From an uncultured Verrucomicrobiae bacterium (lineage in GTDB: Bacteria > Chlamydiota > Chlamydiia > Chlamydiales > Rhabdochlamydiaceae), in contig CAWFUG010000002.1 in the NCBI GenBank assembly GCA_963818965.1, positions 1-64,000 of the forward strand: a DNA stretch of 64,000 bases. The letters run 5' to 3'. Below are positions 48,891-49,089 of the stretch, piece after piece. The notes beneath the pieces are model-generated. The model was not told where the DNA came from and ran no database searches. It saw only the letters and a program-made list of their open reading frames with translations. A program made the position numbers and the translations under genes. The first letter of the stretch is position 1. Every line of letters starts with the position of its first letter.

Positions 48891-48919
48891 TTGGGTCAAA
48901 ATCGGATCCAATCTATAAT
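48891..48919 (+). promoter_or_regulatory. Internal promoter in the IS110 left end
   Basis: TTGGGT-17nt-TATAAT. Confidence 0.6.
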
Positions 48920-48923
48920 TCCT

Positions 48924-49086
48924 CCTCGTAATGTAGAGGCCGAGCTATCATTGGCGCTTGTAAGCCCGGCACAGAGAATGGCACGCAAAAGGTCACGTAA
49001 GCATCGCTGGTGAGATCGTAAGATCATCCCGTTTAGGAGAATGTTGGCTTAACACCTTTTGCACATTGCACTTAACCCAAGGAATT
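48924..49086 (+). ncRNA. Candidate IS110 bridge RNA
   Basis: CACAGAG(A) equals the left target+core, CATC complements the right target, TTAGGAG equals the left donor+core, CCCAAGG complements the right donor; bounded by predicted stems. Confidence 0.75.
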
Positions 49087-49089
49087 TTC

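Follow-up and report, generated by a model that had tools for sequence, protein, structure and literature searches.

The window analysed here is a stretch of 64,000 nucleotides (nt) from an uncultured Rhabdochlamydiaceae bacterium (GenBank assembly GCA_963818965.1, contig CAWFUG010000002.1, positions 1 to 64,000). At 48825-50470 it holds what is probably an RNA-guided element of the IS110 family, with a rearranged bridge RNA in its left end that would be transcribed from an internal promoter, and a recombinase gene that would be recoded at a run of nine A residues (A9). An earlier note on this DNA had read 48891-49089 as a bridge RNA laid out like that of IS621. The family assignment and the left-end position of the RNA are upheld by the two recombinase domains (PF01548 and PF02371), by a profile match to the IS621 transposase and by left guides that covary with their DNA sites, and all the strings that had been named were located where the note had placed them, including CACAGAGA (48970-77). 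The leader stretch is a genuine bridge RNA of a known kind of system, with its target part wired in the reverse of the IS621 order.

The element and its immediate surroundings are as follows.

48825-50470, + strand: IS110-family element of 1646 bp, the right end counted with one copy of the AG core.
48818-48824, + strand: left target plus core, CACAGAG, in the host repeat; identical to RNA segment 48970-76, with covariation in the family.
50457-50470, + strand: right end, consisting of the subterminal repeat AAGTTAC and then the left donor TTAGGAG.
50471-50538, no strand assigned: rest of the host palindromic repeat, comprising the right target ATGGAAAACC..., the loop and the intact right arm.

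The exact ends follow from a second, identical copy and from flanks that restore an arm of a palindromic repeat. The second copy lies on contig 9 (G000:C9:448504-450149), with 100% identity over bases 1-1646, and both copies sit in the palindromic host repeat: copy 1 reads ...TCACCACAGAG, the element, ATGGAAAACCACAGAGAGG, and copy 2 reads ...TCACCACAGAG, the element, AGGGGAAACCACAGAGAGG. Excision of 48825-50470 in silico rebuilds the left arm of the palindrome, and an intact right arm lies downstream, at about 50508-50535. The left end is 265 nt long, and the right end measures 23 nt. Searches of the 2.24-Mb genome by profile and by tblastn found no further copies or remnants. The repeat family itself (48805-48824 and 50471-50538), which differs from the palindrome at 34952-35118, carries two ACCACAGAG units per arm and is the target of the element; ACCACAGAG occurs 541 times in the genome, compared with 17 expected, and exact CACAGAGATGG sites number 67. 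The 5-mers found most commonly 3' of CACAGAG are AGGAA (124), AGGGG (93), AGAAA (58) and ATGGA (44). The element would target CACAGAG/ATGG within a palindromic repeat of hundreds of copies.

Relatives were gathered as 49 loci from genomes and 80 from metagenomes, in which a profile of the leader matched 127 times, 120 of these with gap-free guide columns. The window's element belongs to a chlamydia-like clade of 20 (the window, L032, L038 and L052-L068; protein identity 72-79%), its nearest loci being in metagenome-assembled genomes (MAGs) labelled Parachlamydia sp. (76%) and Chlamydiae bacterium (75%). The lineage was seen in MAGs labelled Acidobacteriota, Chlamydiae, Planctomycetota and Bacteroidota, among others, and the leader is kept across the range from the elements of Acidobacteriota-labelled MAGs through the chlamydia-like clade. 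The RNA features within the leader, referred to throughout what follows, are these.

48937-48984, + strand: target module, with the right-target guide, hairpin P2 and the left-target guide lying inside helix P1.
48937-42 with 48979-84, + strand: helix P1, from RNAalifold and clade pair counts.
48944-48949, + strand: proposed right-target guide GCTATC, with four Watson-Crick pairs and one G-U pair to core G plus ATGG.
48952-48968 (48952-57 with 48964-68), + strand: hairpin P2, TGGCGC...GCCCG, 100% paired, with compensatory changes.
48970-48976, + strand: left-target guide CACAGAG, equal to the left flank plus AG core.
48985-49062, + strand: donor module, in which helix P3 encloses the segment G3, hairpin P4 and the left-donor guide.
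48985-92 with 49055-62, + strand: helix P3, 100% paired in the clade, with four pairs changed on both sides.
49000-49005, + strand: G3, AGCATC, in the right-guide position of the donor module; it includes the CATC of the earlier note.
49008-49031, + strand: hairpin P4, the upper part being gatc-GTAA-gatc (49014-25) and the lower part TGG/CCG.
49033-49039, + strand: left-donor guide TTAGGAG, equal to the last seven bases of the element.
49076-49082, + strand: CCCAAGG, formerly taken for a right-donor guide; its AAGG(A) part is a likely ribosome-binding site.

The two left guides carry the strongest evidence. Of the 97 loci whose flank is long enough, 70 carry an exact copy of their own left-target 7-mer 95-165 nt upstream, and the 7-mers of other loci were found in that interval in 140 of 10209 trials. 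Similarly, the left-donor 7-mer recurs 1370-1570 nt downstream in 78 of 85 loci, with GTT(T/A)CT directly 5' of the downstream copy, compared with 47 of 7836 trials for the guides of other loci. AG ends both left guides, and forms the core, in nearly all 120 guide pairs. In 20000 shuffles of 48926-49089, CACAGAG appeared in 211 and TTAGGAG in 239. Covariation of guide and target among relatives had been suggested as the check on the first reading of this RNA, and by that check both left guides, together with the AG core, were borne out; it went against CATC as the right-target guide, and CCCAAGG proved not to be conserved in position.

The helices were derived from RNAalifold and from pair counts over 19 clade sequences, and then counted in 88 other relatives. 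Within the clade 91.8% of the P1-P4 cells are paired, compared with 31.7-41.1% when the partners are slid, and in ten pairs both sides have changed. The pairs of P1 and P2 are kept in 72-88 of the 88 other relatives, with GC, AT and GU pairs alternating, and the two strands of P3 alternate together as CAGGGA/TCCCTG (39), CAGGGG/CCCCTG (17), CAGGAT/ATCCTG (7) and CAGGAA/TTCCTG (4). The RNA is read from the + strand because the G-T pairs abundant in these helices are compatible with that strand only. The leader, from about 48926 to 49089, would thus be a bridge RNA of two modules. P1 would close the internal loop of the target module, with the capped P2 separating its two guide strands, and the 3' strand CACAGAG, identical to the left flank plus the AG core, would base-pair with the target's bottom strand. 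P3 would enclose, in order, G3, P4 and the left-donor guide.

When the 5' strand of the P1 loop (48943-51) is set against the right flank, an antiparallel diagonal of complementarity appears: RNA positions 48947, 48946 and 48945 pair with right-target (RT) positions RT2, RT3 and RT4 at frequencies of 0.56, 0.51 and 0.59 (expected 0.36, 0.31 and 0.39), and 48949 stands opposite the core G, so that the guide covers core G and not core A. In this fixed register, the pairing of 48944-49 with an element's own flank averages 3.25 of 6, compared with 2.53 for the flanks of others, and none of 2000 shuffles reached as high; 33 of 69 own pairs have at least four matches, and the perfect six-of-six cases are unrelated in sequence (GGAAGG, GGAGCG, GGGCCG and GACACA). 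CATC (49002-05), in contrast, which had been proposed as the right-target guide, scored 1.92 for own flanks and 1.90 for others, of 6; 669 of 2000 shuffles scored at least as much, and the diagonal was flat. CATC alone is uninformative, because it is present in 8673 of the 20000 shuffles.

These results bear directly on the IS621-like alternative set out in the earlier note, in which a loop closed by ccggc/gctgg would hold the left-target guide on its 5' side and CATC on its 3' side, and a second loop would hold TTAGGAG, an inner stem aatgt/acatt and CCCAAGG. Every string of this layout is present, and CATC does complement core G plus ATG of the copy 1 flank, but its columns show neither complementarity to the right flank nor a diagonal. 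The closing stem has its outer three pairs formed in 87-88 of the 88 relatives; these pairs, however, reuse the GCCCG of P2, and where GCCCG varies, it is the P2 partner that compensates with a Watson-Crick pair (AT in seven), the closing-stem partner merely wobbling (TG in seven). Its inner two pairs are unpaired in 16 and three of the 19 clade sequences and paired in only ten and 18 of the 88 relatives, and the stem as a whole crosses P1 and P3, both of which carry compensatory changes. The inner stem (49040-44 with 49063-67) fared better, being 92.6% paired in the clade, and its acidobacterial equivalent seems, by eye, to alternate TGCG/TGCA with TACA/TGTA; yet no pair changes on both sides in the clade, and the stem would form a pseudoknot with P3. 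A further 5' hairpin, CCTC/GAGG (48924-27 with 48936-39), could not be sustained: it is only 47.4% paired, in a region where the alignment is poor, it overlaps P1, and its 5' arm, 5-8 nt past the -10 box, may perhaps lie outside the RNA. We therefore regard the IS621-like layout as unlikely, and place the right-target guide 5' and the left-target guide 3' in the target loop.

The remaining part of that layout, CCCAAGG as the right-donor guide, is a perfect complement of the first seven bases of the element, CCTTGGG, and occurred in 180 of the 20000 shuffles. However, it leaves the core uncovered, it shares bases with the ribosome-binding site, and the closest relatives do not have it at the corresponding position, where only L061 (CCCTT) and L062 (CCG) show comparable letters. 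The AAGG(A) ribosome-binding site is also found in L052, L056 and L058, whose termini differ. A longest-complement test from the left-donor guide to the ATG gave no right-donor enrichment, own maxima being the same as or below those of other loci (4 in 37 loci, 5 in 11, 6 in six, 7 in five and 3 in four). One observation in favour of a guide in this region is a 4-nt complement of the core plus right-donor (RD) positions RD1-2 at the 3' foot of the inner stem, seen in 11 of 55 loci, compared with 3.6% for the ends of other loci, although the 11 appear to fall in about three lineages (L004-like, L104-like and L032).

In the two-module reading that we prefer, the right-guide position of the donor module is occupied by G3. 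Its 6-mer is copied on the same strand just 3' of the hairpin in the left end (see the list below): of 63 unique loci, 34 have the copy at +20 to +29 and two have it at +50 to +59, and reverse-complement copies have no preferred place. The 4-mers of G3 and of this copy, site S, agree in nine of 18 clade loci, which only 19 of 5000 shuffles reach, neither comparison being corrected for shared descent; the agreeing pairs include CATT/CATT, TATC/TATC and TATT/TATT. We also tried G3 as a right-donor guide of the terminus itself and rejected it (2.40 vs 2.16 of 6, with 40 of 2000 shuffles as high; G1 control, 19 of 2000). Column-by-position covariation against the left terminus and site S gave no diagonal and was dominated by clade structure, and pairing by eye of G3, P3 or the tail with the terminus, with the hairpin looped out or not, gave nothing consistent.

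The left end contains the following DNA features ahead of the leader.

48830-48874, + strand: DNA hairpin GGAAGGGG...CCCCTTCC, containing a terminator-like site; the arms covary by eye in the clade alignment.
48877-48880, + strand: site S, CATC, a same-strand copy of the G3 segment.
48886-48892, + strand: left subterminal repeat GTAACTT, an inverted copy of AAGTTAC at 50457-63; it overlaps the -35 box.
48891-48919, + strand: promoter-like TTGGGT-17-TATAAT, with the -10 box at 48914-19 and its position conserved in relatives.

The left repeat lies 61 nt inside the element, and the two subterminal copies covary, since acidobacterial relatives carry GAAACT/AGTTTC at the same places. Transcription would start from the promoter inside the left end, with its -10 box at 48914-19. 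In the clade, 14 of 18 loci have a TAnnnT box that ends 47-50 nt 5' of the left-target guide, and 11 of the 18 have a -35 box starting with TTG; among 83 other loci, the TAnnnT box ends at a distance of 54 nt in 44. A search for a promoter spanning the circle junction found none, the best candidate matching at five of 12 positions. The conserved position supports a putative promoter wholly inside the left end rather than one formed at the junction, as the earlier note had proposed. A consensus promoter scanner called no promoter in this region, which is accounted for by the -35 box TTGGGT matching the consensus at only three of six positions. The 27 bases that precede the start codon show no terminator, so the leader would be continuous with the messenger, and the bridge RNA probably doubles as the 5' leader of the recombinase mRNA. 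At 48835-48852, 10 nt into the left end, is a terminator-like hairpin with a T run after it, which could block transcripts that come in from the flank.

The same features allow a quite different role for CCCAAGG, namely that it pairs with CCTTGGG in transcripts that read through from the flank, hiding the ribosome-binding site. Such fold-back inhibition has precedents in IS10 and IS50, CCCAAGG does overlap the AAGGA site 7 nt before the ATG, and the terminator-like hairpin would be consistent with insulation from outside transcription. Against this, the pairing would join two 7-mers 250 nt apart, and the complementarity is specific to this element, the relatives being without it; we consider this explanation improbable, more so than the IS621-like layout, and keep to CCCAAGG as the site of a likely ribosome-binding sequence at the end of the bridge RNA leader.

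The recombinase gene follows the leader directly, in two open reading frames (ORFs).

49090-49866, + strand: ORF1, DEDD (RuvC-like) domain, 258 amino acids; PF01548, E = 4.8e-21, 75.6 bits against a cut-off of 29.
49836-49844, + strand: A9 run, a conserved, putative recoding site between ORF1 and ORF2.
49845-50447, + strand: ORF2, in the -1 frame, Tnp domain with serine motif; PF02371, E = 9.5e-13.

The acidic motifs of ORF1 (GIDIG, MESTG and KSDVIDC) align, by profile position, with GIDTA, IEATG and KTDTVDA of the IS621 transposase 8wt6_A, and GTRISGG of ORF2 falls where the family profile aligns SGG with the ESGS of IS621. Neither ORF alone matched any PDB entry at E 0.001; an 18-sequence family profile, however, matches 8wt6_A (E = 9.9e-15) and the ISCro4 transposase, the alignment to 8wt6_A spanning the GIDxG...ESTG...SD..D region and the SG serine region.

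The recombinase reading frame is not uninterrupted but is split at A9, and a full-length protein would need a -1 shift there, by slippage of RNA polymerase or by -1 ribosomal frameshifting. The earlier note had taken the interruption for a defect in need of repair, a view that the relatives contradict: the run is A9 in 19 of the 20 clade elements and A10 in one, and the clean layout of ORF1 followed by a -1 ORF2 is found in 15 of them. Three (L052, L057 and L068) have a continuous frame through an additional base at the run. Of 78 complete genes from beyond the clade, 73 are a single ORF, and only two of the 78 have any A run of eight or more. Among the best 120 protein clusters (71-100% identity), 107 are short products of 242-280 amino acids with PF01548 only, and 11 are fused, at 420-452 amino acids. 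To judge from these sequences, the split looks like programmed slippage or -1 frameshifting rather than damage. The motif A_AAA_AAA doubles as a -1 frameshift signal. A conserved run of nine A where two transposase ORFs overlap is recognised as a mark of programmed transcriptional slippage, and runs of nine A were found in 27 insertion sequence (IS) elements (Baranov et al. 2005, PMC1088944); as in the transposases described there, the run here lies between overlapping ORFs, and the fusion would be the full transposase. Our full-text literature search found no description of slippage or -1 frameshifting on an A run in IS110-family recombinases.

Could the element instead be a dead relic, its frameshift inactivating and its leader no longer functional? 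The small number of copies (two, against 67 exact CACAGAGATGG sites) would fit, as would L032 and L038, which have additional frame breaks. However, the two copies show 100% identity across all 1646 bp, the catalytic motifs have been preserved, and the prevalence of A9 in the clade and of short ORF1 products among the protein clusters argues for a selected state. We hold this to be the least probable of the alternatives, very improbable indeed, and retain the reading of a recoded, RNA-guided element.

In many relatives from acidobacterial MAGs (L003-L005, L036, L070, L083, L101, L120 and others) the right flank consists of tandem heptads, e.g. CACAGAG-R-CACAGAG, and the guide changes in step with the heptad (CACGGAG, CGCAGAG, CGCCGAG). 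Of 120 elements, 33 use the identical guide CACAGAG, and these span several phyla. In L014 (1700-3400) and L031 (2100-3850) elements are arranged head to tail, and in L014 the left-target guide of one, TTAGGAG, is the right end of a neighbouring relative, so some members of the family seem to insert at the ends of others.

Taken further, the results allow a tentative proposal, which we regard as possible but somewhat short of an even chance: that this is a widespread lineage with a circularly permuted bridge RNA, having the right guide 5' and the left guide 3' in both modules; that G3 reads a subterminal site beyond the DNA hairpin, and not the terminus; and that the chlamydia-like clade sets the amount of active recombinase by slippage at A9, which would also yield a RuvC-only protein.

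A number of points weigh against our interpretation. G3 is not complementary to the left terminus, which leaves the right guide of the donor module without demonstration. The right-target signal is moderate, with RT1 and RT5 little enriched; many natural sites match the guide only after a shift of 1-2 nt, and GCUAUC, which makes four Watson-Crick pairs and one G-U pair with the copy 1 flank, pairs with that of copy 2 at only three of six positions. Tandem-heptad targets, which make the right flank resemble the left-target guide, could inflate this signal, although the non-heptad cases speak against such an effect. The ccggc/gctgg stem shares its three outer pairs with the P2 partner sequence and could be an alternative conformer. 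A single-sequence fold of 48920-49095 is no better than those of shuffles (z = +0.55; 138 of 200 as good), and yields neither P1-P4 nor the structure of the earlier note. A scan of 48000-51500 against Rfam 15, at E up to 10, gave no bridge RNA match, only chance matches on the host palindrome, though Rfam may hold no such family. Among the sequencing runs that hold the element there are 11 DNA runs, in which it makes up small shares, and no RNA run. Only two copies are present despite the 67 exact CACAGAGATGG sites, and the activity of the element may therefore be low or absent. Finally, the conservation of A9 might stem from a shared homopolymer miscall, which is unlikely given more than 100 independent assemblies.

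Bridge recombinases are under development as programmable tools for genome rearrangement, and their design rules come almost wholly from IS621 and its close relatives. A natural target loop wired in reverse would show that the RNA scaffold tolerates circular permutation, which would be useful for split or re-ordered guides. The more than 100 natural guide/target pairs, the AG core and the putative autonomous internal promoter would likewise caution against annotating guides by analogy with IS621. If confirmed, the A9 site would be an apparently undescribed case of recoding-controlled expression in the IS110 family, and many 'frameshifted' IS110 genes in chlamydia-like genomes should then not be called pseudogenes. 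The coupling between G3 and the internal site points to a further step in donor recognition.

Earlier work has described bridge RNAs, how they covary with target and donor, and how diverse their structures are (Durrant et al. 2024, PMC11208160), and 86 covariance models of bridge RNAs are now described, many deviating from the IS621 structure yet covarying with target and donor (10.64898/2026.10.21.760802). Section 2.4 of the latter does not describe a reversed guide order, and the present family may already be among its 86 models.

In comparison with the published accounts of IS621 of Escherichia coli, the two elements are alike in having a DEDD plus Ser recombinase and a guide RNA in the left end, on the same strand; left guides equal to the left flank plus core and the right end plus core; a right-target guide that complements the top strand; and insertion in repeated extragenic palindromes. 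The left guides of IS621 are flanked as CCG...guide...(A/T)TGG, and the same flanks surround the left guides here. In each loop of IS621 the left guide comes first, on the 5' side, and the right guide second, the left-target guide being nt 50-58 and the right-target guide nt 77-80 (Hiraizumi et al. 2024, PMC11208158; Durrant et al. 2024, PMC11208160), whereas the target loop here begins with the right guide and ends with the left. The present loop would then be an IS621 loop whose strands come in the opposite order, which amounts to a circular permutation, the inner stem-loop of IS621 corresponding to P1, which is here open, and the outer stem to P2, which is here capped. The core is AG rather than the CT of IS621, the protein is too distant from IS621 for a single-sequence PDB match and is visible by profile only, the recombinase gene, unlike that of IS621, is split at A9, and a right-donor guide was not found at the place expected from IS621. 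The promoter appears to be internal, whereas that of IS621 is rebuilt at the circle junction, but the contrast is one of degree, because weak expression of bridge RNA is also reported, in a 2026 paper, from integrated IS621.

The element also has features in common with other IS110 relatives. ISPpu10 of Pseudomonas putida, from the IS110 group, inserts in many copies of a conserved intergenic stem-loop repeat (Durrant et al. 2024; 10.64898/2026.03.19.712850), and in that system a DNA hairpin beside the paired sequence is described as adding specificity (Na et al. 2026, 10.64898/2026.03.19.712850). The present element likewise targets a repeated host palindrome and has a hairpin in its left end. 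With the IS1111 group and its seekRNAs it shares subterminal inverted repeats of about 7 bp, here AAGTTAC/GTAACTT (Durrant et al. 2024), and donor-binding bases that would lie in a multi-branched loop rather than in a simple internal loop. However, IS1111 elements are described as carrying their RNA in a long right end, whereas here the RNA lies in the 265-nt left end, opposite a right end of 23 nt, and the left repeat is set 61 nt inside the element.

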